IMG/VR virus record: IMGVR_UViG_2537562189_000011
Span: 1-11,657 of that record
Length of the DNA: 11,657 nucleotides
Direction: 5' to 3' (one strand)
Source of the DNA: a virus
Lineage: Duplodnaviria > Heunggongvirae > Uroviricota > Caudoviricetes
Under the pieces are notes generated by a model. The model was not told the DNA's origin, did not search any database, and was given only the letters and a program-made list of their open reading frames with translations. The position numbers and the translations under genes are program-made. Positions 1 through 11,657 of this stretch are shown here, piece after piece. The number at the start of each line of letters is the position of its first letter. The stretch's first letter is position 1.

Positions 1-441
1 TCATTCATCAGCGCCATACATCCAGTTATTGCGGTTAGCGGCCCGTTCTTCCTCCTCACGGAATCCACCCGCAGCACGCTTGTTTTTTGTGGACGGATCA
101 AGCCATTTCGTTTTCTGGTTATGACACGCCTGGCACAATGGCTGATGATTCCACTCAGGCCAGAAGAGAACATCATTACCGCCATCGATTGGGATAATGT
201 GATCCACCACCACGGCGGGCGTGTATATTCCTTTTTCCAGGCAATGCGCACATAACGGGTTTTTACTCAGATACATGGCGCGGTATTTCTCCCACTGCCT
301 CGTATACCCTCGCTCCCTGCTGCTGCCTCTCCGGCTGTCCTGCTGCTGGCGTGCGCTGCGTCTGTGCTCCTCACACTTGCCGGACTTCACGCGCCTGTTG
401 CAGCCTGGTTCTGTACATCGTCTTAATGGTTGCCACGGCAT
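1..441 (-). CDS. HNH endonuclease (packaging-associated)
   Basis: 146-aa ORF, ATG at 441-439, stop at 3-1. Cys-x2-Cys ... VVDHIIP ... N ... Cys-x2-CHNQK zinc-finger HNH motif. Start overlaps the stop of the upstream connector gene by 1 nt (TGATG). Confidence 0.85.
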   Translation of the reverse strand: MPWQPLRRCTEPGCNRRVKSGKCEEHRRSARQQQDSRRGSSRERGYTRQWEKYRAMYLSKNPLCAHCLEKGIYTPAVVVDHIIPIDGGNDVLFWPEWNHQPLCQACHNQKTKWLDPSTKNKRAAGGFREEEERAANRNNWMYGADE

Positions 442-737
442 CAGTACACCCCCACATCACGGTAAGCCGTCCAGAGTGCGCCAATCGTCATGGGTACGTG
501 TGTTTTTGCGTTATCCGCGACAATCTGGCGATTCTCATACAGGTGAGCGATAAACATCATGCAGCCAATCTTTATGGCTGGCGTGAACTCCAGCCCGTCA
601 TCAAAGCGCCTGCCTATGTGTATCTGGCACGCCTCAAGCGATGCGGCAATGTATCCGCTGATTAACTGGTCTTCCTCGTCTCCATCGATACGGCAATGGA
701 GTTTCACTTCTTCCAGGGTGATAAGTTCTTCTGTCAT
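441..737 (-). CDS. Head-tail connector protein (gp6-like)
   Basis: 98-aa ORF; N-terminus MTEELITLEEVKLHCRIDGDEEDQLISGYIAASLEACQ matches the conserved start of gp6-like connector proteins. ATGA overlap with the upstream gene. Confidence 0.75.
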   Translation of the reverse strand: MTEELITLEEVKLHCRIDGDEEDQLISGYIAASLEACQIHIGRRFDDGLEFTPAIKIGCMMFIAHLYENRQIVADNAKTHVPMTIGALWTAYRDVGVY

Positions 738-1072
738 TTTTCCGCGCCCTCACGACAAAGAATTTCAAGGCGTGTCCTGGCGACATCCGGCAACGGCTGC
801 CCGATGATATTCAGTACACGCCCCGCCAGCGGCCCCGTACTGACCTTTATCCGGCTGGTGGCGTTGATGTCCTTCCGGTACCGTATCCAGATCCTTACGG
901 TACCAATCGCCAGCTCTGCGCCCGATGAAATGGCCTCCTTGCTGCTGATCATGTTCACGCTTGCCCAGAGTGTGTGACCGTCCTCCCACGTTTCGAGTAT
1001 TTCGCCCGTCATGGCTCTGGTCTGTTTCAGGGTCTGAATCGTTATCCTGTCACGCAGTCGCCCTATGTTCAT
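734..1072 (-). CDS. Head closure / head-tail adaptor protein
   Basis: About 112 aa from ATG 1072-1070, which overlaps the portal stop as ATGA; an alternative ATG at 1114 would give 126 aa. MNIGRLRDRITIQ ... VRIWIRYRKDI pattern typical of head closure proteins. Confidence 0.65.
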   Translation of the reverse strand: MNIGRLRDRITIQTLKQTRAMTGEILETWEDGHTLWASVNMISSKEAISSGAELAIGTVRIWIRYRKDINATSRIKVSTGPLAGRVLNIIGQPLPDVARTRLEILCREGAEK

Positions 1073-2277
1073 TCCGGTTTTTCTCCCTCGCTGATTTTTA
1101 CTTCCTGTTTCCATGCCTGACTGAACTCATCACCACCATCACGCGGTGACAGTCCTTCACGTTCGCGGGCTTCGTTCGGGCACATAACGCCGGATTTGAT
1201 GCCGCGCTCATAGGTGGCAAAGCGTTCGCCAGGTGTGGCCCGTAACAGGTCCGCGCTGTCAAACTCCACCTGATACCGGATACCAGGTACAGGCGAGGCC
1301 ACCAGCAGGGCGTTTTTTATCTGCTGCTCAAAGTTCGCCAGCCACGGGCGCATCGTCATGGTGAGAAATGCGCGGCTTGCCTCGCTGAAATTGCTGTAGG
1401 TGCTGTTGCTGTATTCCTGCAAAAAAATCGGCGAGACGTTGAACATTCGGGCGATGTCTTCAATGGTAAAGCGACGGGAGGCCAGCCATTCAGCATCCTG
1501 ATTACTCATGCCCAGCTGCTGATAGCTCATCCCCCCTTCAAGGATGGGCGTTTTTCCGGCGTTTCTGGCCCCTTTGTAGCGTTCCAGTGCGGCTAATGCC
1601 TGTTTGCCCTTCACGCCGTCCAGCCATTCGCCTGACGTGATAACCCCTGCCGCCATCATGCCATCACGCATCACGCTCGCGCCGTGGCGTTGTTGGGCCA
1701 GCCCAAGCCCCAGCGATTCGCGGCAGATGGTTACAGGTGAGCGCCCCATAAAGCCGTCATCCGTGGAGTAACGAAGGTGAAGTACTTCCCACGGTAAATA
1801 GTTGTGGGTGTTTCCGGTGTAGGCGTCAGTGATGCAATAGCGCCAGTTGTGTTCGCCTGTCTGCTCCACGTTCACCGACTGCGGCGGGTAAGGATGTAAA
1901 GCCGCCGGAAAACCATCACGCCCCCACTGAATAACCGCATAAGCATTACCGTTTAACAGGCAGTGGCGGATCATCATTCGCTTAAACTGGTAGGGGGTTT
2001 GCCATGCGTTCGGGCGCTCGTTGAGGATGTGATCGACCGGATGAGAATCAAGCCACTCGCGGGCCTCCTTCCCCTTCTCATTGCGTACCAGGTACAGGTA
2101 GCATGGCATAGTAGCCACCGCCTCAGAGATGACCGTAACGGCGTTCATGACGGCAGGCAGTGATTCCGCTGTCCCCGATGATACGTACTCACCCGCCCCC
2201 GTGTTCGATGTGCCAGCCAGCGCCATAAATTCATCAAGCGTCATGCTGCGCTGCTCTTTTTTCTTCTGAAAGGCCAC
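1069..2277 (-). CDS. Portal protein (HK97 family)
   Basis: 402-aa ORF in the size range and position of HK97-type portals. GTG start at 2277 preceded by GGGGG; alternative ATG at 2244 (MTLDEF...). Lies 3 nt after the protease stop. Confidence 0.8.
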   Translation of the reverse strand: MAFQKKKEQRSMTLDEFMALAGTSNTGAGEYVSSGTAESLPAVMNAVTVISEAVATMPCYLYLVRNEKGKEAREWLDSHPVDHILNERPNAWQTPYQFKRMMIRHCLLNGNAYAVIQWGRDGFPAALHPYPPQSVNVEQTGEHNWRYCITDAYTGNTHNYLPWEVLHLRYSTDDGFMGRSPVTICRESLGLGLAQQRHGASVMRDGMMAAGVITSGEWLDGVKGKQALAALERYKGARNAGKTPILEGGMSYQQLGMSNQDAEWLASRRFTIEDIARMFNVSPIFLQEYSNSTYSNFSEASRAFLTMTMRPWLANFEQQIKNALLVASPVPGIRYQVEFDSADLLRATPGERFATYERGIKSGVMCPNEAREREGLSPRDGGDEFSQAWKQEVKISEGEKPE

Positions 2278-2280
2278 ATA

Positions 2281-2853
2281 TCACACCCCCGCTAAATCCA
2301 CCCACCAGCGGCGATTATCCGCACGCGGCATTTTTTCGGGGTGCTGCTCATACAGGGAACGGCGGGCCAGCTCCACGCCGGAATCGGGGTAAGCCGGTAC
2401 CGATGTAACGGTAATTTCGTACAGTTCCGCCACCAGCACGGTGCGCACGCATGGATCTGTTGTGGTATCCCATACATCCTTACGGGAGCGAAAGCCAAAG
2501 CTCATGCCGGATATATCACCACGTTTAACCAGTTCGATAACGTCGCGCCCTGTACTGGTATCCGGTGGGGTCAGTTCAAAGCGTAACCCTGTTTCATCCT
2601 CTTCCAGTTTCAGCGTGCCGGAACGGGTGCGCCCCAGTAACATACTGTGGTCATGCTCATACAGGCCGCGAACGTCATTACCCGCCGCAAGCCATTCAGT
2701 AAACGCCCCCCGCTGGAATTTTTCGTAAAACTCACCCCATAACAGTTCTGAAAGCTTATCCCAGCGAACAACGTAGCCTGTAAGCGTGTTGCTGCCGCTG
2801 GTGGTGATTTCCGATGACCGGATTTCCATACTCTTCATAATTTTTTCACCCAT
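2281..2853 (-). CDS. Prohead maturation protease (HK97 / S78 family)
   Basis: 190-aa ORF between the capsid and portal genes, with sequence character of HK97-type prohead proteases. Three in-frame ATGs at 2853, 2838 and 2829; 2838 has the best spacing to a GGTGA Shine-Dalgarno. Confidence 0.8.
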   Translation of the reverse strand: MGEKIMKSMEIRSSEITTSGSNTLTGYVVRWDKLSELLWGEFYEKFQRGAFTEWLAAGNDVRGLYEHDHSMLLGRTRSGTLKLEEDETGLRFELTPPDTSTGRDVIELVKRGDISGMSFGFRSRKDVWDTTTDPCVRTVLVAELYEITVTSVPAYPDSGVELARRSLYEQHPEKMPRADNRRWWVDLAGV

Positions 2854-2882
2854 AAAACACTAAAGGGGCTTTTAAGCCCCTT
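2852..2882 (-). terminator. Intergenic hairpin with U-tract between capsid and protease genes (candidate attenuator)
   Basis: AAGGGGCT (2863-2870), loop TTTA, AGCCCCTT (2875-2882). On the minus strand the stem is followed by UAGUGUUUUAU. Confidence 0.45.
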
Positions 2883-2892
2883 CTGTATGCTG

Positions 2893-4050
2893 TTAATCGT
2901 CGTCCTGTGGCAGTTCCAGAATCTTGATCGCGTTCGAATCCACCACGCCACCGCCTAAATATTTCTGCGTGAAAATTTTGATGAAGCCCGGCTCTGTGAG
3001 GTTGTCCGGTCTGGTGCGAACACCTGTTTCGTGATCAACAATGTAGTAACCGCGTTTGAAGTCACCCAGGGCAATAACGTTATCAGGCATAAACTCCAGA
3101 TATTCGACCGGAAGGCCCAGCAACGTATCAGGATCACCCGCCTGTAAACGGTCACGCCAGATGTAATCACCGTTCGCGTTCTTCACCTTCTGGAGTTTTG
3201 CCGCCGTCGTGGAGTTAACCACCCAGACCGCGTTTTTGCGGTATTTTTTACGTAATGCAAATTTCAGGTCGATCAGCGGGTCCGCAGATGTCCACGCCAG
3301 AGATTCGGAAGGTTTAATTACCTGCAACGTACCAAAATCACGCTCTTTGTCGTTCTTCTCTGCACGGGGTACGGATAAAAAGCCTTTTGCTTTTTTGTCA
3401 CCGTCGCCCACAACCAGATCGCTTTCTTCGGTTTCCGTGAAGGTGTCGCCAATCTCGCCCGTCAGCCATGAAAGGATGTCCACATCGGAAAAATCCACGA
3501 TTTCCTGTGTGGTGCGCGGGTACGCATAGACCGGATACAGCTTAATGCTCACCTCGTTAATCTGCGGGGTGCTGGTCTGTTCGCGTGCCTTACCCTCTTC
3601 ACCGTGGTTAACGGTCGCACCGCCAGCGGAAACAAGCTGCTTAAACTCGTTGCTGCTGATTTTTTTCACGGTACAGATGCGGCGCATGGTGGACTCATCC
3701 GCCAGCATTCGCATGATTTCGGTGTTCAGTTCGGGGATAACGGTATAACCACCATCAGCGGGAACGCCTGTACTTAATGCGCGGGTTTCACCTGTCAGAA
3801 TGTAGTTGCGGAGTTCTGCGGGGTCAGTGGTCTGACTGCTTTTACCTGGCTTGCTGCGCTCTTCGTCTGCAATGGCTTCAAGGCGGGAAATGTCTTTATC
3901 GAGGGATTCAGCTTTAGCGCGTAATTCGTCAAATTTTGCGCCCTCTGCATCGTTAAGGCTGCGGTTTTCTTTTTCCGCGTTCTCCAGCATGTCGCGCATC
4001 TGATTTTTAATGGCGGTTTTCTGCTGGCGTAATTCGATTATTCTCGGCAT
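2893..4050 (-). CDS. Major capsid protein (HK97 fold) with N-terminal scaffolding-like delta domain
   Basis: 385-aa ORF, ATG at 4050. The N-terminal ~100 aa is charged and coiled-coil-like (ELRQQKTAIKNQMRDMLENAEKENRSLNDAEGAKFDELRAKAESLDKDISRLEAIADEE), as in the delta domain of HK97-type capsid proteins; no separate scaffold gene is seen. Confidence 0.85.
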   Translation of the reverse strand: MPRIIELRQQKTAIKNQMRDMLENAEKENRSLNDAEGAKFDELRAKAESLDKDISRLEAIADEERSKPGKSSQTTDPAELRNYILTGETRALSTGVPADGGYTVIPELNTEIMRMLADESTMRRICTVKKISSNEFKQLVSAGGATVNHGEEGKAREQTSTPQINEVSIKLYPVYAYPRTTQEIVDFSDVDILSWLTGEIGDTFTETEESDLVVGDGDKKAKGFLSVPRAEKNDKERDFGTLQVIKPSESLAWTSADPLIDLKFALRKKYRKNAVWVVNSTTAAKLQKVKNANGDYIWRDRLQAGDPDTLLGLPVEYLEFMPDNVIALGDFKRGYYIVDHETGVRTRPDNLTEPGFIKIFTQKYLGGGVVDSNAIKILELPQDDD

Positions 4051-4140
4051 AAAAAAAGTACCTGGGTTAAGTAAGGAACTCCAGGACGCGGCAAAAACTC
4101 AACCGTTTTTCATAAGGAAATCAGCAATCGCACCGATCGT

Positions 4141-4246
4141 TTTCCCGCCTGGTAATGAATATTGGTGAGCACATTAACAGGCGGGAAAGTGGCCCCAGCG
4201 TCCTGGCACCACTGGCGAGAATAATCATGATTCAGGGCGGGTAAAA
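4141..4246. promoter_or_regulatory. Inverted and direct repeats of TTTCCCGCCTG upstream of the capsid operon (candidate regulator binding sites)
   Basis: TTTCCCGCCTG at 4141-4151 is the exact reverse complement of CAGGCGGGAAA at 4178-4188; an inner TAATG/CATTA pair (4153-4157 / 4172-4176) extends the palindrome. A related CAGGGCGGGTAAAA lies at 4233-4246. All are 90-200 bp upstream of the capsid start. Confidence 0.4.
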
Positions 4247-4291
4247 TATGCCGATCCGGTCAATGAACAACGTGGAACGACCACGAACAAA

Positions 4292-4330
4292 TAATTTACA
4301 AAAATTACAAAAAGCCGGATTTCTCCGGCT
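4292..4330 (-). terminator. Rho-independent terminator separating the replication/regulatory operon from the capsid operon
   Basis: Stem AGCCGGA (4313-4319), loop TTTC, TCCGGCT (4324-4330). On the minus strand it is followed by UUUUGUAAUUUUUGU, and it sits immediately 3' of the stop at 4337. Confidence 0.6.
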
Positions 4331-4336
4331 GTTTGA

Positions 4337-5029
4337 TTAGCTGTCCTGGTAATTGCGCCATATTTCATCACCAGCACCATCTATACCCATTTCGGCATAA
4401 GTGCGATCGACTGCCTTTTTCAGGTCTCCGAAATTATCCGGCGGCTCCGGTGCCCTCTGTGCCTTCCTTGAACATTCCAGCCGTCGCATCGTGATGTGAT
4501 GCCGTTCCTTGTCTGTCTCCACCAGCTGCATGACTTCACCCCATCGCGCCGCCGCCCTCCGGTAAAAGCCTTTCGCCTCCAGTTCCTCCGCTATGCGGTC
4601 ATGTACCATCGTCACCCCCTCAGAACGAAATATCATCACCGTAAGGGTCATCGCTCCCGCTGGTGGCTGATTACCCTGTGTGCCTGTGGTTTTGCGTCTG
4701 TTCCCGCCAGGAAGTGCCGCACGGGCACTGATTACGCTGTCTGCAATAACCTGATAACCCTGCCGCGTTTCCCCATTCTGTCCGGTCCACTGGCTGACCT
4801 GCATCGTGCCGGATACGCTGGCAACGTCGCCTTTTTGATGTTTAGCCAGGAAGTCGGCCTGCTTACCAAATGCGATGACCGATAGCCATAACGTCGCCTG
4901 CCCATCCTGCGCCTGACTACATGGCAGCGATACCGCCATACGCGCCAGCGTCATCGGTGTACCCTTGCTGGTCTGTTTTACCTGCTGGTCGTCCACCAGC
5001 CGCCCGTAAGCCGCTATCTGTGCTGTCAT
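4337..5029 (-). CDS. Two-domain protein: N-terminal SSB-like OB fold, Gly/Pro/Gln linker, C-terminal PerC-like small-regulator domain
   Basis: 230-aa ORF, ATG at 5029 overlapping the upstream stop (ATGA). Residues 1-105 follow the SSB OB-fold pattern (GRL..D..V ... TLW.SVI.FGK.A.F..K..KGD ... WT...G..R). The C-terminal ~90 aa carries AEELEAKGFYRRAAARW, recalled from PerC-type regulators. An internal ATG at 4609 has a strong GAGGGGG Shine-Dalgarno 5 nt upstream. Confidence 0.55.
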   Translation of the reverse strand: MTAQIAAYGRLVDDQQVKQTSKGTPMTLARMAVSLPCSQAQDGQATLWLSVIAFGKQADFLAKHQKGDVASVSGTMQVSQWTGQNGETRQGYQVIADSVISARAALPGGNRRKTTGTQGNQPPAGAMTLTVMIFRSEGVTMVHDRIAEELEAKGFYRRAAARWGEVMQLVETDKERHHITMRRLECSRKAQRAPEPPDNFGDLKKAVDRTYAEMGIDGAGDEIWRNYQDS

Positions 5030-5277
5030 GCCGTCTGCTCTCCGGTTTTAACGTTGATGGTTGTTACCTGTTCCGCTTCGGCAATCTCCCGTTCTGTCAA
5101 CGTGGCAAAGTTTGCCGCTGCTGTGGTCATGAATGCGCTTATCAGTTCGGGATGCTCCTTCGCGTATCCTTCCCCCGCGTGGCGGTCTATCGTCCTGATT
5201 GCCACCTTTAAGGCCAGTTCAGCCATATCTAACGCCTTATATTTCGGCTCTGTTCTGTCTCTGCGTTTTTGGGTCAT
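5026..5277 (-). CDS. Hypothetical protein (about 83 aa), translationally coupled to the SSB-like gene
   Basis: The ORF track extends to a TTG at 5334 (102 aa), but that extension is encoded by the iteron repeats. ATG at 5277 (MTQKRRDRTEP...) has a GAGAGG Shine-Dalgarno; a further ATG lies at 5226. No recognised domain. Confidence 0.45.
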   Translation of the reverse strand: MTQKRRDRTEPKYKALDMAELALKVAIRTIDRHAGEGYAKEHPELISAFMTTAAANFATLTEREIAEAEQVTTINVKTGEQTA

Positions 5278-5288
5278 TTCTCGCAACC

Positions 5289-5479
5289 TCTCACTTTTTC
5301 GCCTCACTTTTTCAAGCGTCTCACTTCGTCGCAATTGGGATTTTTGGTTTTTCTATGTGTGTGTTTCATAAGTATTTTTTTACCCCTCACTTTTGAGGAT
5401 GTATACAGGTAGAAAAGTGAGGGAGAGCAGGCTAATTTTGGCCCTCTTTCTATCCACCTCGCTTTTGCTCCTCACTTTT
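5289..5479. repeat. Iteron cluster (CTCACTTTT) flanking an AT-rich segment; candidate replication origin
   Basis: Perfect copies at 5290-5298, 5304-5312, 5387-5395 and 5471-5479, one inverted copy (AAAAGTGAG, 5413-5421), and degenerate copies at 5320-5328 (CTCACTTCG) and 5459-5467 (CTCGCTTTT). AT-rich core at 5331-5384. Lies immediately 3' of the helicase gene. Confidence 0.6.
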
Positions 5480-6459
5480 ATAGCGGCGCTACATCATCCC
5501 CATCGATACGAATAACCCCATCTTTTTCCAGCTTGTACAGCCAGCGCCGGAAGTTTTTCATTTCATACCCCAGCTTTTTCATGTCATCACGTAACAGCGG
5601 GATCGTGCACTTGTCGCCGTTCTGTGTGCGTGAACGGATGCACCCCCATAGCGCGGTATGGTTTTCCGTCTTGTTCCCTGCCTCCTCGATGCGCTCCAGT
5701 TCAACGGGAGGGCGCGGCTTATCCACCACCACCAGCGACGTGATTAATTCACCGTCAGCGTCGGTAAAAAGCTCCACCACGCGTAAGTCATATGCGGCTT
5801 CTTTGAGTTCCTCCGCGTCCTTCATTTTGGTGCATGAGATAACCAGCGCTTCGCCTCCTGCGTCCTCCCTGCGTATCCGGTATTCAGCATCCAGCGAAGC
5901 ACGAAATGCACTGGAACCGCGCGCGCCTTTCGCTCATCCTTGCCGGAATGGTGAACCACCAGCACCGTGGCCCCTGTGCGTCGATTCAGTTCGTCACAAC
6001 CACGGATAAACGCCCCCATATCACGGGAATCATTTCATCATTCCCACCAAGGCAACGCGCCAGCGTATCCAGAATAATCATGCGTACAGGTTTACCCGTT
6101 TCCCGCTCCACCTGACGGGCAGCGATAACCATTTCATCAACATCAAGCGGGGCAGCCGGAAAGATGGGGCGGTTTACCAGATACAGATTTTTCACCTGCT
6201 CATCGTGCACAACCTCCCAGGCTTTTACACGACGCGGAACACCTATACCGCCTTCACCAACCACATAGAGAACCGCACCATGTGCAACCCTGCGGCCTCC
6301 CCACTGGCGACCAGTGGCAACATGGCACGCCCACGATCCGGCAAGGAATGATTTATAGGACCCGCTAGCCCCGTATATGCTGCATAGCGATACCGCCGGA
6401 ATAATCCCCTTAACCACGTAATCCAGTTGCGTGTCGTATCCGGTAGATCCAACGCTCAT
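5478..6459 (-). pseudogene. Replication helicase (AAA_25 / RepA-like) disrupted by two frameshifts
   Basis: Three consecutive minus-strand ORFs in three frames together form one helicase-like protein: Walker A GASGSYKS and Walker B MIILDTL (6459-5986), GATVLVVHHSGKD (6019-5822), C-terminal domain (5825-5478). Reading continuity needs about +1 nt near 6033-6035 and -2 nt in the CCGCGCGCGCC tract at 5917-5927, which restores ...HHSGKDERKARGSSAFRASLD.... Confidence 0.7.
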
Positions 6460-6875
6460 CGGTAGCGTGGTTTTTCGCTGGTGGTTTTTTCTTCCGCCGG
6501 CTCTTTCCCGCGCACCCGTTCCAGGTATTCGCGCCAGTTCTCCCGCATATGGCTGTGCATCCCTTCGGGGTAATAATTCGCATCAGTTACACCCGCCGCC
6601 GCCAGTTTGTGCGCAATGGCATTAATATTTGATGGCCTGATGTGGCCTGCCTTGTACAGCCGGACACAATAGCGCCCCTCGTCGATGATTCTCAGGTCTG
6701 CCAGTTCATCCAGTTGATCATCAGCCAGCACAACGGGAGGCACATTATCGCCAGCCAGTCGCCCGTCCTGTTCCTGCCACTGTTTCGCATGTGCCCAGGC
6801 ATCACTACCCGCAAAAATAATGACTTCGGTCATCTTGTCGTAAGGCTGTTTTTTTAAGTTCGGTGCGCTTTTCAT
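6456..6875 (-). CDS. Hypothetical protein (139 aa), coupled upstream partner of the helicase gene
   Basis: ATG at 6875 with AGGGG Shine-Dalgarno; ATGA overlaps with both the upstream gene and the helicase start. No confident domain assignment. Confidence 0.55.
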   Translation of the reverse strand: MKSAPNLKKQPYDKMTEVIIFAGSDAWAHAKQWQEQDGRLAGDNVPPVVLADDQLDELADLRIIDEGRYCVRLYKAGHIRPSNINAIAHKLAAAGVTDANYYPEGMHSHMRENWREYLERVRGKEPAEEKTTSEKPRYR

Positions 6876-7171
6876 TTCTTGCCCCTGAATCCGTTAATCA
6901 TGGTTTTCAGCTTCTGGATGTTTGCACGTGCCCTGGCGTTGCTGGTGGGCACGTTATGCGGCGCGGTCTGTACCAGAGAAAAATCACGCCGGAACTGATA
7001 AACAGGCATCACGCAATCATATTCGTAACCTTCACGGCGGTAAGTTACGCACCGTCCCGCCACGCCCTTAATCATTACCGTGCCGCCGTACTGGTCGCGG
7101 TAAATATCACCGCGCGTAAATTTAGGGTGAGTGTTGCCACTGGCAGTTAAGCCAGAATATTTAAGTTTCAT
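6872..7171 (-). CDS. Hypothetical protein (99 aa), first gene of the replication operon
   Basis: ATG at 7171 with a GGAGA upstream; ATGA overlap with the next gene; preceded by a 230-bp AT-rich intergenic region. No recognised domain. Confidence 0.5.
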   Translation of the reverse strand: MKLKYSGLTASGNTHPKFTRGDIYRDQYGGTVMIKGVAGRCVTYRREGYEYDCVMPVYQFRRDFSLVQTAPHNVPTSNARARANIQKLKTMINGFRGKK

Positions 7172-7403
7172 TATTTTTATTCTCCGGTGTGCTGTTCGTT
7201 ATATCTGTCGTGCAATGTCTCTATTTCCTGCAACACATTTATTACAGGCTCAAGAAGCGTTATTAATGATGTAATAATCCGCGTTTTTTTTGCTATTACG
7301 TTCATTATCGCCAAAGGATTCAAGGCACATCCGCAATATTTCCATCATATTTTCACTGTGAGAAAGTGCAAGAAATACGCGATCTGTTGTTTCGTGGTAA
7401 ATA

Positions 7404-7637
7404 TCACGCATGGCTTACATCCTCAGGAAATTTTCTTCTGTAACGAGCCTCTGCCACATATTCCGCATAATCGGCGGCGATATTCAGTACATCAAGCCCC
7501 GTTGATTTATATTCTCTCGTGGAAAGTAAGAAAAAAGCCGCTCTAATAAGTTCTGGCATTGACGAAAGCGCATCAGCCGCATCATCAGGAACGCCGGAAA
7601 ATTCCTGTTTCAGGGAATTAAAACGATCATCACGCAT
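7404..7637 (-). CDS. Hypothetical protein (77 aa); possibly the C-terminal half of a gene split at a homopolymer tract
   Basis: ATG at 7637 sits immediately 3' of a G9 run (C9 on the plus strand, 7640-7648). One extra G would fuse it in frame to the upstream ORF. Confidence 0.4.
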   Translation of the reverse strand: MRDDRFNSLKQEFSGVPDDAADALSSMPELIRAAFFLLSTREYKSTGLDVLNIAADYAEYVAEARYRRKFPEDVSHA

Positions 7638-7870
7638 AACCCCCCCCCATTTTCACAATCAGCAATCAGGATAGCTTTGGCCTCATTCAGCGCCGTATCA
7701 GCACTAAATTGCATGACAGCCAGTGAGTGAGGAACGAAAGCACCGGCATATTCTGTTTCGCTGGTGGCGTGCTTATGTGCCCTGTCCGCGATAACAGAAA
7801 TATCAATCAGCGCGTGCATCAGCGTTTTGATGGCTTCGGCGGCTGCGTCCGGTGTGGTTTTATTGTGCAT
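7610..7870 (-). CDS. Hypothetical protein (86 aa); possibly the N-terminal half of a gene split at a homopolymer tract
   Basis: ATG at 7870; the reading frame runs through the G9 tract (ENGGG) and stops 27 nt later. Confidence 0.4.
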   Translation of the reverse strand: MHNKTTPDAAAEAIKTLMHALIDISVIADRAHKHATSETEYAGAFVPHSLAVMQFSADTALNEAKAILIADCENGGGLCVMIVLIP

Positions 7871-8072
7871 AAAGCATCCCCTGAATATTCGTGTTAATCA
7901 TTCCGGCACGTTTTGTGATTTCCTGTAATGATTCCCTTGTGGCGACAATTGCTTCATCTGGTAAGTGGTAATTACACACCACGCGACCTTTATCCACATT
8001 GACCAGTAGCTGCCCTGTGAATTTCTCACGAAACTGAATGCGGTTAAGGTCAGTAAGTGACAGATTAATCAT
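7860..8072 (-). CDS. Hypothetical small protein (70 aa)
   Basis: ATG at 8072 preceded by a strong AGGAGG Shine-Dalgarno at 6-nt spacing; the ORF track's longer version starts at a GTG at 8114. Start overlaps the stop of the upstream gene. Confidence 0.5.
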   Translation of the reverse strand: MINLSLTDLNRIQFREKFTGQLLVNVDKGRVVCNYHLPDEAIVATRESLQEITKRAGMINTNIQGMLYAQ

Positions 8073-8262
8073 AGCGCACCTCCTGACGAATACGGGCGGC
8101 AAATACAGCAACACAACCTGACGGGCAACGGCTATGCGCTTCGCGTTCCGTCCAGGCGGTTACGTGGATGATTTGAGATTCTCCGGCACTCAGTGCCAGA
8201 AAACGCCACACAAAGGCCGTTTGTGTGTGTACAAGGTGTGGGGTATGATTTACGGCAACCAT
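8065..8262 (-). CDS. Hypothetical small protein (65 aa)
   Basis: ATG at 8262 preceded by GAGGAG at 5-nt spacing; the ORF track's longer version starts at a GTG at 8361. No recognised domain. Confidence 0.5.
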   Translation of the reverse strand: MVAVNHTPHLVHTQTAFVWRFLALSAGESQIIHVTAWTEREAHSRCPSGCVAVFAARIRQEVRYD

Positions 8263-8351
8263 AACGGCTCCTCGTTTACGTTGTTGGTTAGAAGCCCTGC
8301 GAGTGGTAATGACACTTGCGGGGCTTTGCTTTTTTAAGTGCTCTTGTGTTA

Positions 8352-8397
8352 AGGTGGTCACCTAACAATAGAAAGGCTAATTCAATAGGTGACCACT
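8352..8397. promoter_or_regulatory. Operator-like inverted repeat pair (GGTGGTCACC / GGTGACCAC) in the divergent intergenic region
   Basis: GGTGGTCACC at 8353-8362 and its near reverse complement GGTGACCAC at 8388-8396, centres 35 bp apart, between the minus-strand gene starting at 8262 and the plus-strand gene starting at 8457. Confidence 0.45.
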
Positions 8398-8456
8398 TGT
8401 CAACAATCAAACGCGATAAAAGCCCTAAAGGGGACGGGCAATCCCCACAATTCAGA

Positions 8457-8588
8457 ATGCGAATTTCTCCAGAGCTAAAAGAGCAATTCGATAAAGAAGC
8501 ACAGAGCGACGGCATAAGCCTAGCCAACTGGCTTAAAGAGTTGGGGCGCACTGAACTAAAGCGGCGCGGTATAGAACCCAAAGGATAA
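8457..8588 (+). CDS. Ribbon-helix-helix (Arc/CopG-like) DNA-binding protein, copy 1 (43 aa)
   Basis: MRISPELKEQFDKEAQSDGISLANWLKELGRTELKRRG fits the strand-helix-helix pattern of ribbon-helix-helix regulators (Arc/CopG-like). Nested in the 90-aa ORF-track ORF 8316-8588; Shine-Dalgarno is weak. Confidence 0.45.
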   Translation: MRISPELKEQFDKEAQSDGISLANWLKELGRTELKRRGIEPKG

Positions 8589-8590
8589 AA

Positions 8591-8637
8591 ACTATCAGCG
8601 CCGTGGTGTGAGGTACTACGGCGCATTGCTTTACAGG
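8591..8637 (+). repeat. 47-bp conserved hairpin element, copy 1
   Basis: ACTATCAGCGCCGTGGTGTGAGGTACTACGGCGCATTGCTTTACAGG, 46 of 47 identical to 9332-9378. Contains a GCGCCGT / ACGGCGC stem (extendable to 11 bp with G-U pairs). Begins 2 nt after the stop codon and ends 8 nt before the next ATG. Confidence 0.7.
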
Positions 8638-8645
8638 GCAGTACC

Positions 8646-8873
8646 ATGACCAACAACACACTATCACCAATACAAGACACGCAAACGCAAGATGATGAAA
8701 TCATCCGGCAAAGGCAGTCAGAAGCCTGCGCCAGACTTGAGGAAGAACTAACCAGAACAAAAATACCACCACCAGCGCCGCGCTTAGTGCCACCAGAAAA
8801 ATTTGCCCTTGAAGATTTTGTCGATAAATACCCACGGCGGCTTAAATCCGGCAAAAACCGACCGCCAGGATGA
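8646..8873 (+). CDS. Hypothetical small protein (75 aa), MTNN... N-terminus
   Basis: ATG 8 nt after the 47-bp element. The first ~50 nt are homologous to the start of the ORF at 9387. No recognised domain. Confidence 0.4.
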   Translation: MTNNTLSPIQDTQTQDDEIIRQRQSEACARLEEELTRTKIPPPAPRLVPPEKFALEDFVDKYPRRLKSGKNRPPG

Positions 8874-8892
8874 GTGCACAAAACCGAACTAT

Positions 8893-8930
8893 GAAACGGA
8901 TTATTCCGTTTCCGGGGCGTTTGTGTGTGT
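8893..8930 (+). terminator. Candidate terminator hairpin after the first plus-strand gene pair
   Basis: GAAACGGA (8893-8900), loop TTAT, TCCGTTTC (8905-8912), followed by CGGGGCGTTTGTGTGTGT. The T-tract is interrupted, so this is weak. A second hairpin ACGCCCCG / CGGGGCGT (8993-9026) is followed by TTGTTGTTTTGGG. Confidence 0.3.
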
Positions 8931-9036
8931 ATAAAGAGTAAGCTATGCTCTTTTATAGCCATAATCGTTACCTCAATTAATGGTTTGGTTAGACGCCCCG
9001 TATGTGTTCCCATCACTGCGGGGCGTTGTTGTTTTG

Positions 9037-9129
9037 GGTGTATTTCACCTTCATTTTTAAATCTACATTCAGGTGAAATACACCGCAAGACTTTTTTTAT
9101 CTTTTTTTTTGCGTATACTGAAATACACC
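9037..9129 (+). promoter_or_regulatory. Promoter/operator region of the second ribbon-helix-helix gene: GGTG-N5-CACC inverted repeats plus a TATACT -10
   Basis: GGTGTATTTCACC at 9037-9049 and its reverse complement GGTGAAATACACC at 9072-9084 (centres 35 bp apart); a third half-site TGAAATACACC at 9119-9129 overlaps a TATACT at 9114-9119; T-rich stretch at 9091-9110; AGGAG Shine-Dalgarno at 9137-9141. Confidence 0.5.
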
Positions 9130-9149
9130 GATTATCAGGAGAACCAGAA

Positions 9150-9329
9150 ATGGCAACAGGTGCAAAGAACGCAAAATCACAAATGACAACGGTCAGAATC
9201 CCGCATGAGGTAATGACCGATATTGAGCAACTTAAAGAACCTGGCGAAAGTACCGCCGGATTTCTAGTTACGGCAGCAAAAGGCGAGATCAAACGCCGCC
9301 AGCGCCGCAAGGCCAAAGAATCAGAATAA
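9150..9329 (+). CDS. Ribbon-helix-helix (Arc/CopG-like) DNA-binding protein, copy 2 (59 aa)
   Basis: ATG at 9150 with CAGGAG Shine-Dalgarno at 8-nt spacing. TTVRIPHEVMTDIEQLKEPGESTAGFLVTAAKGEIKRR fits the ribbon-helix-helix pattern. Nested in the 134-aa ORF-track ORF 8925-9329. Confidence 0.55.
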   Translation: MATGAKNAKSQMTTVRIPHEVMTDIEQLKEPGESTAGFLVTAAKGEIKRRQRRKAKESE

Positions 9330-9331
9330 TT

Positions 9332-9378
9332 ACTATCAGCGCCGTGGCGTGAGGTACTACGGCGCATTGCTTTACAGG
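9332..9378 (+). repeat. 47-bp conserved hairpin element, copy 2
   Basis: ACTATCAGCGCCGTGGCGTGAGGTACTACGGCGCATTGCTTTACAGG; same placement as copy 1 (2 nt after the stop, 8 nt before the next ATG). Confidence 0.7.
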
Positions 9379-9386
9379 TACACACA

Positions 9387-9536
9387 ATGACCAATAAAGA
9401 ATCAACCAATACACCATCGCAAAAAACGAACAGAGAGCACGAAAATATGGCGCTCGAGCATGAATCAGAAAGATTCGCTCCATGCGCTTTTGTCCTTGAT
9501 GAGTTTCTAAAAAATATTCACGTTCTGAACGGATGA
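9387..9536 (+). CDS. Hypothetical small protein (49 aa), MTNK... N-terminus; not in the ORF track
   Basis: ATG at 9387 to TGA at 9534-9536, translated by hand: MTNKESTNTPSQKTNREHENMALEHESERFAPCAFVLDEFLKNIHVLNG. Position and first codons parallel the ORF at 8646. Confidence 0.3.
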   Translation: MTNKESTNTPSQKTNREHENMALEHESERFAPCAFVLDEFLKNIHVLNG

Positions 9537-9657
9537 AAATGGCAGCACAATACGGCCCCAACAAGCAAGGTAATTGCCCACCAGCCTGATCACGGTTATC
9601 ATGTTCGGGCTTATGATTGTTGACACATACGGCGCAGCGGGTTAATTGTTCAGAAAG

Positions 9658-9684
9658 GCGGTTCCATATCGGGACCGCTTTTTT
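9658..9684 (+). terminator. Rho-independent terminator closing the plus-strand regulatory cassette
   Basis: Stem GCGGTTCC (9658-9665), loop ATATC, GGGACCGC (9671-9678; 8 bp including one G-U), followed by TTTTTT (9679-9684). Confidence 0.6.
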
Positions 9685-9864
9685 ATGCCTGAAAATACCC
9701 TATAGCATGGCTTTTCAGATTCACCAGGGCGAACGAATCCCCGCCCCTGTACGGGCGTATATTTCATCATGGTTATACCTCAGTATTATGGCGTTTATTC
9801 CCGATACCGAGATCCCGGTATCGGTCAATAATGGATTGGTGGTGGCTGTGTGCCGCCAGTCTTT

Positions 9865-10053
9865 TTAGTGAACTGCCTTGCAGCTATCCTTCCAGGCCAA
9901 AACCTCAGATAAAGACCAGCCAACAGAACGCCCGCCAAGTTTACGACGTGATGGGAATTGTCCGGCCTTTTCCAGGCGGTAGCGGCATGAGCGGCTAAGG
10001 CCTGTTAGCTTTTCGCATTCTTTTTCACGTATAAACCGATCAGTGCTTAACAC
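9865..10053 (-). CDS. alpA: AlpA-family phage regulatory protein (small HTH regulator)
   Basis: 62 aa; RFIREKECEKLTGLSRSCRYRLEKAGQFPSRRKLGGRSVGWSLSEVLAWK matches the AlpA helix-turn-helix signature. GTG start at 10053 with AAGGGGG Shine-Dalgarno 5 nt upstream. Confidence 0.85.
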   Translation of the reverse strand: MLSTDRFIREKECEKLTGLSRSCRYRLEKAGQFPSRRKLGGRSVGWSLSEVLAWKDSCKAVH

Positions 10054-10427
10054 TATTGCCCCCTTTCGTTTCTTAAAGAGTTATTTCGTGTTCTATTGCG
10101 TTGGGATGTGTCTGATTGTGTCAGGATGATTCAGAGTTGGCAAATGTTGGTGTCGCATGGTTTACAGAAAGAGGAATAATCAGGATAAAATCATTTAAAT
10201 TCATGTTAATACAAAGGCATAAAATCTTGTTTTATGCTTTTTTTCGCACGCTTTAACGCGTAATTCACTAATGTATAAAAAACCAGCTGATCATTAAAAA
10301 TCAGTAACTTATAAATCTGTATTCTTTTTGGCCTCTTGTTCGTGATTGTGTCACGTTGTTGCACATTGTTTCACGTTGTATCTGTGCACTTATCCAGTAT
10401 GCGCATACTGAAAAAACACGAGAAAAA

Positions 10428-11657
10428 TTATTTTATTCTGGTTACTGGTAGCGTGGTTACGTTTTCATGTGTTCCCGCCAGTATCTCCAACCGCTCCACC
10501 CACATATCAAGCGCATTGCGTTTCGCATCAATATAGCGGGAATGGTTGTACACGCGTTGCATTCCTAGCATCTGGTGGCCTGTAAGCTGCTCCACGACGT
10601 GAGGATCAACGCCTAAATCGTTCAGCATGGTTGTAAAGGTGCGCCGGATGTCATGCAGTGACCAGTGAGGGTGTTTAAGCCTCCTGTGCACCAATCTGCC
10701 GTACTGCGATACGCTGGTTTCCTGTTTCACTTCCCCCAGCAATAAGCCCGTGTGCCTGTTCTGCTCCACCAGCTGCGTGACGAACGGCAGTATCGCTTCC
10801 GGTATGGGCCGGAATATGGCTACCTTCGTTTTGCTGTGCTCCTTCGGAACGGTCCAGAGCATTTCGGTAAAATCCCACTCGCCGATCTCCGATAACCTCA
10901 GTTCTACTGTCCGGCATCCGAAAACAATCAGGAGGCGGATTAGTGCGACGTAGTAAGGGGAAAATATTTTTTTGTCCAGTGCCTGCAATAATTCGCCAAG
11001 TTCTTTGTTACTTAAGACACGCTCACTTATATCCGGTTTTTTCCCAACGTCCGCCACACTCATATCATCAAGAACGTTGCTGATTGCATAGCGCCGCTTC
11101 CTGCAGAACTTAAGCGCCTGCTTGCATGTCTGTAGCAGGAACCCGGCGGAAACAGGGGCTTTCTTTGCCACCCGATCAAAACAGGCCAGCCAGTGCCGTA
11201 GCTCGCATTTATCCAGCGGCATAGGGCCAATGTGCTGTATTACGTGATTATTTAGCCGCTTTTTCAGTGGGTCATAATCCACACGGTTTTCCTTTGCGTA
11301 CGACTCAAGCCAGTAGGTGAGCGCATCGCCAACCGTTACCGGCTTTAACGCTTCCTGTACGGTGTAATTCATTTCATGACGTGGATTTTTCCCCTCTGCC
11401 AGCCATGCGCGACACTGGGCGGCTTTTTCCCTGGCTGATTTCAGGCTCAGATCAGGATAATTTCCCAGCTTAATGCGTTCCGGTGGTGCCCCCCTTCCCG
11501 TTCCGGCCCTGTAAGTGAAATACCAGGTTAAAAGGCCACTGGTTGAATGCCTGACGCTCAGGTTTCCACCGTCATTAAGAAAGGCTGTTTTTTGGGCGGG
11601 TGTGCCGTTGATTTTCCTCAGCTGGGTATCGCTCAGTTTGTTAAGTGCTCTGCTCAT
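10428..11657 (-). CDS. int: Tyrosine integrase, P4-type (site-specific recombinase)
   Basis: 409-aa ORF, ATG exactly at the window end (11657-11655), TAA at 10430-10428. N-terminal arm-binding-like domain (GLLTWYFTYRAGTGRG..RIKLGNYPDLSLKSAREKA) and a C-terminal catalytic domain with HxxR and a terminal Tyr region as expected for tyrosine recombinases. Confidence 0.9.
   Translation of the reverse strand: MSRALNKLSDTQLRKINGTPAQKTAFLNDGGNLSVRHSTSGLLTWYFTYRAGTGRGAPPERIKLGNYPDLSLKSAREKAAQCRAWLAEGKNPRHEMNYTVQEALKPVTVGDALTYWLESYAKENRVDYDPLKKRLNNHVIQHIGPMPLDKCELRHWLACFDRVAKKAPVSAGFLLQTCKQALKFCRKRRYAISNVLDDMSVADVGKKPDISERVLSNKELGELLQALDKKIFSPYYVALIRLLIVFGCRTVELRLSEIGEWDFTEMLWTVPKEHSKTKVAIFRPIPEAILPFVTQLVEQNRHTGLLLGEVKQETSVSQYGRLVHRRLKHPHWSLHDIRRTFTTMLNDLGVDPHVVEQLTGHQMLGMQRVYNHSRYIDAKRNALDMWVERLEILAGTHENVTTLPVTRIK

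Follow-up and report, generated by a model that had tools for sequence, protein, structure and literature searches.

Two short genes for ribbon-helix-helix (RHH) proteins, each preceded by a pair of GGTG/CACC palindromes, raise the question of which protein reads these sites and which promoters it would control. The genes lie in a window of 11,657 nucleotides (positions 1 to 11,657 of IMG/VR record IMGVR_UViG_2537562189_000011) that, from its list of open reading frames (ORFs) and its annotated relatives, is an Escherichia coli capsid-forming phage-inducible chromosomal island (PICI). AlpA is the helper-induced activator of Gram-negative PICIs, and their global repressor has been called unclear (PMC6092414; PMC11773190; capsid-forming PICI preprint). 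We find that the palindromes are probably operators of the two RHH repressors encoded downstream of them, and that each gene with its sites would form a compact switch on back-to-back promoters. Our literature search found no paper on the function of YlcI/YnfO, the family of one of the two proteins, or on an RHH repressor in PICIs; an RHH repressor switch is not described for this satellite class.

Repeated sites in front of two RHH genes

The palindromes and the 35-bp centre-to-centre distance of both pairs, on which the original prediction was built, were found in the sequence as claimed. In cassette 1, site O1 (GGTGGTCACC at 8353-8362, within AGGTGGTCACCT, 8352-8363) is conserved in all loci of its class, named PQFRMRI after the protein strand described below. 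Site O2 (GGTGACCAC at 8388-8396, within AGGTGACCAC(TT), 8387-8398) is an imperfect palindrome, since the tenth base of GGTGACCAC is T, and it covers the Shine-Dalgarno sequence of the first gene, RHH-1. In cassette 2, O1 (GGTGTATTTCACC, 9037-9049) is an inverted copy that is near-invariant in 31 distinct sequences of the MTTVR class, and O2 (GGTGAAATACACC, 9072-9084) lies at -77 from the ATG in all classes. Cassette 2 has a further site, O3 (CTGAAATACAC, 9118-9128), which covers the end of the -10 element and the +1 of the second gene's own promoter. The original prediction had placed a third site over this -10, and the finding is consistent with autoregulation; this third copy, TGAAATACACCG at 9119-9130, abuts TATACT at 9114-9119.

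The centres of the two pairs are at 8357.5 and 8392.5 and at 9043 and 9078, that is, 35 bp apart in both cassettes. Each pair is itself an inverted repeat with 100% complementary arms, 11 nt long in cassette 1 (8354-8364 and 8386-8396, 21 nt between them) and 14 nt long in cassette 2 (9037-9050 and 9071-9084, 20 nt between them). Cassette 2 holds in addition a 12-nt direct repeat whose copies are 45 bp apart (9074-9085 and 9119-9130).

We searched the rest of the window for the same motifs and found the strict forms at these sites only. GGTG-N5-CACC occurs twice in 11.6 kb versus 0.20 expected, a count of two being reached in 6 of 200 shuffles. With zero or one mismatch, the 11-mer GTGAAATACAC is confined to the three places in cassette 2 and AGGTG-N2-CACCT to the two sites of cassette 1. 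The loose form GGTG-N2-CACC with at most one mismatch was found 9 times versus 4.8 expected and is not enriched by itself.

Two proteins related at superfamily level

Both genes encode RHH proteins, as had been supposed, and profile, alignment and model evidence agree on this. RHH-1 (8397-8588, plus strand) is an Arc-like protein of 63 amino acids (PHROG 228, Arc-like repressor, E 5e-7). Its start is most likely the TTG at 8397 and not the ATG at 8457, because all 63-residue homologues cover RHH-1 at 100% and its N-terminal extension is conserved among them. The sequence can be aligned from end to end with Arc of phage P22 (1b28), the PQF-x-x-R strand included. An AlphaFold2 model (predicted local distance difference test score, pLDDT, 82.5) is extended over residues 1-24 and has helices at 25-37 and 42-56. 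In Foldseek its top matches were all P22 Arc (TM-score 0.89, root-mean-square deviation 1.3 Å, prob 1.0), followed by CopG, AmrZ, NikA and antitoxins. The turn G-(I/V/M)-S, in which S41 is conserved at 90% or more, satisfies the G-x-S/T/N turn of the superfamily at the start of helix B.

RHH-2 (9150-9329, plus strand; 59 amino acids) belongs to the YlcI/YnfO family (NF041551, 62.1 bits, E 3.8e-17, against a curated cut-off of 30 bits; PHROG 949). RHH-1 did not match NF041551, which limits membership in this family to cassette 2. The RHH-2 model (pLDDT 87) is extended over residues 1-18, with helices at 19-28 and 35-58, and the YlcI turn G32, E33, S34 (G-E-S) is invariant or near-invariant. In both proteins the AlphaFold2 monomer models leave the β-strand itself unassigned.

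The two proteins had been called paralogues, which holds at superfamily level and fails for anything closer, one being Arc-like and the other a YlcI/YnfO protein. BLASTP gave no alignment between RHH-1 and RHH-2, and a sequence search of the PDB gave no match for RHH-2. When the family profiles were compared with hhalign, the two families aligned (88.5%, E 2.7e-6), which is the sole link of RHH-2 to RHH proteins of solved structure; from these comparisons the two are kin at superfamily level only. The same hhalign alignment places YlcI R16 at RHH-1 R22, and the separate alignment of RHH-1 with Arc places RHH-1 R22 at Arc R13. Through these two alignments YlcI residues 12 and 14 correspond to Arc Q9 and N11. 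In the Arc-operator structure (PDB 1par), Arc Q9 and N11 are base-contacting residues.

Sites co-vary with the protein β-strand

We compared 80 loci with YlcI relatives and 80 loci with RHH-1 relatives, all on viral contigs, and nine E. coli loci; the YlcI modules number 87, 80 of them from the IMG/VR loci and 7 from the window and the E. coli loci. YlcI cassettes carry three copies of an 11-bp site, which reads GTG-N5-CAC in 10 of the 11 classes into which the β-strands fall, and each class has a site centre of its own. MTTVR, found in 31 distinct sequences from several genera and represented in the window by cassette 2, goes with the centre AAATA, and LFTVR with AAACA. QLNAR, QVNVR and QVSVR go with AATCG, AATAG and AACAC, respectively. 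The remaining pairs are SVTAR with TCTTA, ALKAR with TGGCC, KLEAR with TCAGC, TVAAR with TTGAA, QKTAR with ACTTG and KKNIR with TGTGCGCACA. Like residues go with like centres.

The Arc-like family (80 loci) behaves in the same way, with at least six classes that have their own sites. PQFRMRI goes with AGGTG-NN-CACCT, the central dinucleotide of which varies freely (GT, GC or AC), PPFHMRI with AGGTGTACACCT, PAFQxRI with AGGTGTGTACCT, PMFNVRI with AGGTATAGACCT, PTFQIRI with ACGTACGTAC and PIFSxRL with GTATGGACC. The common GGTG/CACC arms that had been noted in the two cassettes are therefore a YlcI-wide feature (10 of 11 classes) and are shared by only part of the Arc-like family, so the resemblance between the cassettes is suggestive at best.

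In the 31 distinct MTTVR upstream regions, which share 76% mean identity, conservation is concentrated in O1, O2, the -35 of a leftward promoter, a T-tract, the -10 of the rightward promoter together with O3, and the Shine-Dalgarno sequence. Of the proteins encoded on either side, AlpA is 100% identical and the Icd-like protein identical or nearly so across islands with at least five site classes, and the sites are tracked by the adjacent RHH protein only. From the one-to-one co-variation of β-strand and site, together with the constancy of AlpA, we conclude that the sites are very probably operators of their cognate RHH proteins. The claim that the two cassettes differ in specificity is thereby borne out across about 160 loci, in which the repeats behave as cognate operators. 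This co-variation is our main evidence for operator identity, and it lends indirect support to a reading in which an RHH dimer would place a two-stranded β-sheet in the major groove.

One relative has a mixed set of sites. In locus L002 (3230-3330), O1 and O2 are of one class (GTGACTTGCAC, strand QKTAR) and O3 is of another (CTGAACACCAC, strand QVSVR). This operator set looks recombinant and would uncouple autoregulation from control of the leftward promoter.

Site positions on predicted divergent promoters

Both families show the same placement of the sites on a predicted leftward promoter (PL), with O2 within its spacer and O1 at its -10 or start site or slightly beyond; downstream of PL come a conserved leader, element A, and then icd. 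In cassette 1 the best leftward sigma-70 match (PL1) has its -10 TAGCCT at 8374-8379 and its -35 TTGACA at 8398-8403, both on the minus strand, with O2 between them. The -35 is embedded in codons 1-3 of RHH-1. A leftward TTGACA stands at this fixed position in 50 of 52 distinct Arc-like loci, and the TAnnnT of the -10 is conserved across classes. For cassette 2 we read PL2 from the sequence, again on the minus strand, with its -10 TAGATT at 9060-9065 in a position that is conserved family-wide. Its -35 TTGCGG (9083-9088) is TTGACG or TTGAAG in most relatives, and O2 again falls in the spacer. Among distinct YlcI loci the leftward -35 is found at -61 or -62 from the ATG in 48 of 64. The sequence right of O2 is (C)GTCAA, TTCAA or CGCAA in both families, which on the minus strand gives the -35 TTGAC(G/A), TTGAAG or TTGCGG, and TAnnnT follows 17-18 bases beyond it.

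The RHH genes have predicted promoters of their own on the plus strand. PR1, an extended -10 promoter (8347-8355; TG at 8347-8348, TAAGGT at 8350-8355), overlaps the left half of O1. TGnTAnnnT occurs at -50 in 54 of 56 distinct Arc-like members versus a background of 0.7% per position. The PR2 -10, TATACT (9114-9119), has counterparts at -36 from the ATG in all 72 of 72 distinct YlcI loci, mostly with the same hexamer. Between the divergent promoters of cassette 2 lies a conserved T-rich block (9090-9113); read on the minus strand, this block is an A-tract that immediately precedes the PL2 -35 and may be an UP element for PL2.

In all YlcI classes O2 keeps its position, and nearly all of them have O3 at a distance of 45 bp from it; O3 usually begins with CTG, not GTG, and frequently has a second mismatch. 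The distance between O1 and O2 varies. It is 35 bp in MTTVR, LFTVR and QLNAR, 25 bp in SVTAR, KLEAR, QVSVR and TVAAR, and 22-23 bp in QVNVR and ALKAR. The orientation of O1 is also class-dependent, inverted in some classes and direct in KLEAR, QLNAR, QVSVR, ALKAR and TVAAR. Arc-like cassettes have two 12-bp palindromes 33-35 bp apart. The identical 35-bp spacing had been read as a sign of paralogous regulators. It is not a property of the proteins, as the 22-25 bp of other YlcI classes show; the spacing follows from the shared promoter scaffold, in which one site lies in the PL spacer and another at the PL start. The YlcI spacings are mostly 25, 35 or 45 bp, that is, steps of about one helical turn, with 22-23 bp in two classes. 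This suggests that the helical face matters, either through cooperativity or through the position relative to RNA polymerase.

A putative repressor switch and its alternatives

Binding, repression, the role of PL as promoter of icd and the replication genes and the contact model are what we infer from consensus, conservation and co-variation data. In cassette 1, RHH-1 bound to O2 in the PL1 spacer and to O1 at the PL1 start would shut PL1 and hence the leader, icd and the replication genes; on O1 it would also cover the PR1 -10 and limit its own synthesis. RHH-2, made from PR2, would bind O1, a few bases past the PL2 -10, together with O2 and block PL2. At higher concentration it would fill the weaker O3 on the PR2 -10 and +1, which would result in negative autoregulation. 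YlcI β-strand residues 12 and 14 would read the variable site centre and so set specificity, and the GTG/CAC arms would be matched by the invariant arginine (YlcI R16, RHH-1 R22, Arc R13), the conserved N-terminal arm and the basic tail. The cassettes would act as exchangeable specificity units between the conserved elements A and B, and in a tandem the outer PL2 would read antisense through cassette 1.

Separate autoregulation of the two genes, as first proposed, fits O3 of cassette 2 and O1 of cassette 1, both of which overlap the RHH genes' own promoters, but the main predicted target is the leftward icd/replication promoter. That the sites are purely autoregulatory, each RHH protein controlling its own promoter with no role in the leftward operon, we regard as unlikely, even though autoregulation is typical of small RHH proteins. 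At 41-83 bp upstream of the PR2 start, O1 and O2 of the YlcI cassettes are too far away to occlude it. They bracket the -10 of the leftward promoter, the -35 of which is positionally conserved in both families, and this promoter has the A-tract upstream and the icd leader directly downstream.

It is quite improbable that the RHH proteins bind these sites mainly as activators or as Cro-like early regulators. The centre of YlcI O2 is some 48 bp before the PR2 start, and PR2 lacks a -35; activators act from such a position, and P22 Mnt, too, represses and indirectly activates. However, O3 on the -10 and +1 and O1 on the PL start are repressor positions.

We give very little credence to the cassettes being type II toxin-antitoxin modules with the RHH protein as antitoxin and the small ORF behind each RHH gene as toxin. 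Many RHH-1 homologues are labelled 'HicB family antitoxin', but the HicB match of RHH-1 itself (19.5 bits) is below the Pfam cut-off of 21 and covers the RHH part only. The downstream ORFs have no match to HicA or another toxin family in Pfam or PHROG, 57 nt with a hairpin lie between the genes, and the sequence 3' of RHH-1 is not conserved among loci; the conserved partner is the divergent icd operon.

Equally hard to sustain is a role of the inverted repeats at the RNA level, where they would be hairpins of a terminator, an attenuator or a processing site in a transcript and not protein-binding DNA. The predicted folds of both repeats are stable (-23.4 kcal/mol, z -7.7, and -21.9 kcal/mol, z -4.3) and a T-run lies seven nucleotides 3' of IR-2. 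Yet this T-run does not abut the stem, O3 has no partner, the O1 and O2 of the five direct-repeat classes can not pair, and the sites co-vary with the protein β-strand. Binding by AlpA, the integrase, a replication initiator (the repeats being iterons) or a host factor is very improbable as well, for although AlpA is a known island regulator and repeats near replication genes can be iterons, AlpA and Icd hardly change across site classes while the adjacent RHH protein does, and elsewhere in the window the sites do not occur.

Several points weigh against a repressor switch at these sites. The promoter calls are consensus matches, and the YlcI leftward promoter scores 8.23 versus 7.91 for shuffled sequence; what speaks for it is positional conservation only. 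The RHH-2 monomer model had no significant Foldseek match in the PDB, the best being the SeqA N-terminal domain (E 2.4). Arc, CopG and MetJ bind adjacent half-sites, unlike the sites here with their 35-bp separation. A long antisense frame (described below) shares its wobble positions with the RHH genes; the sense (RHH) frame is the better conserved of the two, but codon-level conservation by itself is no proof of the coding strand. Finally, the published model of PICI induction needs AlpA alone, and EcCIEDL933 with a mutated alpA fails to be induced (PMC11773190; PMC6092414; capsid-forming PICI preprint).

Cassette layout and flanking elements

Each cassette is about 700 bp long and has the same order of parts: element A, the repeated sites, the small RHH gene, element B and a small ORF. 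Element A of cassette 1 (8215-8335; direct repeats D2/D3/D8) is a conserved leader with a two-hairpin unit, and a terminator scan called an intrinsic terminator within it on the plus strand (8291-8335). The second copy (8915-9035) likewise has a plus-strand terminator (8991-9035), and it includes a minus-strand remnant of the icd 5' end, for which reason cassette 2 looks like an import from another island.

On the plus strand both copies (8256-8335 and 8956-9035) form two hairpins followed by a U-run, with minimum free energies (MFE) of -35.5 (z -5.1) for copy 1 and -33.5 (z -5.8) for copy 2. Among 20 loci, 7 of the 10 pairs of the terminal hairpin have changed in a compensatory way. The first hairpin has the loop CUCC, complementary to the icd Shine-Dalgarno sequence, and a -10-like TATGAT (8244-8249) lies upstream of the hairpins, where it overlaps the icd coding sequence. 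Element A could act as a cis-antisense RNA of about 80 nt that targets the icd ribosome-binding site; alternatively, it could be a structured part of the icd leader.

Element B is a conserved plus-strand hairpin 3' of the RHH genes (copy 1, 8590-8640, MFE -21.7, between RHH-1 and the next ORF; copy 2, 9331-9381; direct repeat D1), 85% identical over 75 nt between the cassettes. The hairpin itself, GCGCCGTGGTGTGAGGTACTACGGCGC (8598-8624 and 9339-9365), is near-identical behind both RHH genes despite their divergence. An exact search of species-representative genomes found it at a single other locus, a Shigella. Its 3' arm, TACGGCGCA, occurs a third time at 9628-9636, within a promoter-like TTGACA-N17-TAATTG that is followed by a terminator (9657-9685).

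The small ORF of cassette 1 (8646-8873, plus strand) encodes 75 amino acids, is a hypothetical protein in relatives and had no Pfam or PHROG match. That of cassette 2 (9387-9536, plus strand; 49 amino acids, PHROG 21027, E 1.9e-10) is a 67-residue protein cut short by a 1-nt deletion in an A-run, as seen against loci L001 and L002.

A stop-free antisense frame through both cassettes

On the minus strand an eta-like frame without stops runs through both cassettes (8291-9517) and is broken upstream in the window. In relatives (L002, 3299-4720; L011, 1633-3132; L004, 2692-3489) it begins about 90 nt past the alpA stop with a conserved N-terminus (MMKYTPVQGRGFVRPGE...) and terminates either shortly before icd or in frame with that gene. 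All 71 distinct YlcI genes and 59 of 60 Arc-like genes are free of stops in the antisense phase, versus an average of 3-4 stops in the other two phases. The antisense phase also remains stop-free through the 200 nt of promoter DNA upstream in 61 of 71 YlcI loci, where the other phases have about 5 stops. Neither the long antisense ORF nor ECs_1576 of strain Sakai, in the Sp7 region, had a Pfam or PHROG match. The arrangement is that of eta/kil in phage P4 (PMC10111431), but here the other strand of the frame carries a cassette for a putative protein repressor.

The island and its relatives

The cassettes occupy the interval between alpA (9865-10053, minus strand; Pfam Phage_AlpA, E 4.8e-18), the known PICI activator, and an icd-like gene (8065-8262, minus strand; NCBIfam phage_ICD_like, E 6.9e-17; annotated Icd-like in relatives). 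This interval holds all plus-strand genes of the window. AlpA is encoded convergently with the RHH genes and in the orientation of the long antisense frame; the integrase gene (10428-11657, minus strand) lies beyond it. The icd-like gene leads the leftward replication operon and is the predicted target of PL1; after it come, on the minus strand, DUF4222 and the RepA helicase gene, and the capsid, protease, portal and HNH genes are on the minus strand too. The order int(-), alpA(-), RHH(+), icd(-), DUF4222(-) is kept wherever these genes are detectable in the roughly 160 loci; in about 25 YlcI loci from other genera icd gave no match. Two tandem cassettes are present also in 7 YlcI loci and in 8 of 80 Arc-like loci.

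Related DNA occurs in more than 1,100 of 5,426 complete E. coli genomes. The protein of cassette 1 is 100% identical to its counterpart in the prophage-like element Sp7 of O157 Sakai, which we take to be the prototype capsid-forming island EcCIEDL933. Compared with island L001, to which it is 96-99% identical, the window has single-base indels at 4653, 5932, 6032, 6486, 9497-9502 and 9680-9685. Through these indels the RepA helicase gene is divided among several ORFs, the SSB region is changed, the 67-residue ORF is shortened to 49 residues and the long antisense frame is interrupted. Either this copy of the island is decaying, or these are short assembly errors, some of them within homopolymer runs.

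A tblastn search of 50,697 GenBank phages with RHH-2 found no match, and the satellite clade is therefore not a phage gene in that collection. The ylcI of E. coli K-12 (L170, 5252-5446) adjoins the cos site of DLP12 and nohD, and the triple repeat is missing in front of it. The YlcI/YnfO family thus has a second, phage-cos context that is unlike the satellite switch, and we rejected K-12 YlcI as a parallel system.

Comparison with known immunity systems

By working principle the nearest known system is P22 immI, in which Arc and Mnt act at the overlapping promoters Pant and Pmnt together with the antisense RNA sar. Both systems have small RHH proteins, repressors in P22 and putative repressors here, RHH-1 being a recognisable Arc homologue with its PQF-x-x-R strand. 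In P22, and by prediction here, an operator is situated between the -35 and -10 of the promoter to be silenced, and tightly packed opposing promoters couple repression to autoregulation. P22 has one 21-bp operator with adjacent half-sites, bound by a tetramer, whereas here two or three separate sites are 22-45 bp apart. The predicted target here is the satellite's icd/replication operon and not an antirepressor, and the cassettes lie antisense within a long open frame.

By genomic position the nearest is the immunity region of P4 (PLE, the CI RNA, the nested eta/kil genes and an alpA-like gene upstream). It shares the slot between an alpA homologue and the replication genes and the long ORF that runs from just past alpA into the first small gene of the replication operon (PMC10111431). 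The P4 immunity factor is a processed RNA that acts by premature termination, in contrast to the repressor gene with its putative operators on the opposite strand here. 'Immunity repressor RNAs' and Bro-network genes have been placed in this zone (PMC10111431). In our Rfam search no family reached its gathering score in the window, and C4 and isrK were absent from 7900-10200 even at E<=10. The immI of P1 and P7 (c4 RNA, icd, ant) likewise has an icd homologue first in the controlled operon; there the c4 antisense RNA acts on icd translation, whereas the window has no c4 match and no ant gene following.

Other systems share single traits. Stl and Rpr of the Staphylococcus aureus pathogenicity islands and Gram-positive PICIs are also encoded divergently from the excision/replication operon and silence the island, as predicted here, but they are helix-turn-helix proteins of about 250 amino acids, not RHH proteins of 59-63 with no known helper-phage antirepressor. 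Lambdoid immunity cassettes (cI, cro and operators) are, in the same way, exchangeable units of repressor and operators, set between conserved flanks, with many specificity classes in the gene pool; unlike them, ours would use RHH instead of helix-turn-helix proteins and have one evident regulator gene per cassette, tandem pairs being possible. With RHH antitoxins (HicB, CopG-like) the cassettes share the fold, palindromic operators and the HicB label on RHH-1 homologues; they differ in having no toxin partner and no HicB N-terminal domain, their partner being the divergent icd operon.

What the cassettes may mean for these islands

An RHH gene that is divergent from the replication operon and has putative sites on the operon's promoter corresponds to the architecture of a PICI master repressor. 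A wider and tentative proposal, which we offer with less than even confidence, is that the cassettes might be the missing immunity or master-repressor system of Gram-negative PICIs, EcCIEDL933 with its cassette identical to cassette 1 included. There would then be a hypervariable set of at least 17 heteroimmune classes with a readable two-residue code, icd and the replication genes would be kept silent, and the antisense eta-like ORF, coupled to alpA, would carry AlpA-dependent transcription through the switch; a tandem would be a double lock or confer dual immunity.

The operator-matched RHH gene divergent from the replication operon gives these islands a concrete repressor candidate. The many natural protein-operator pairs are a data set on how RHH β-strands may read DNA, and small orthogonal repressor-operator pairs could be drawn from them. 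To keep an antisense frame free of stops across a putative repressor gene and its operators is an unusual coding constraint, and it ties the islands to the eta/kil logic of P4.

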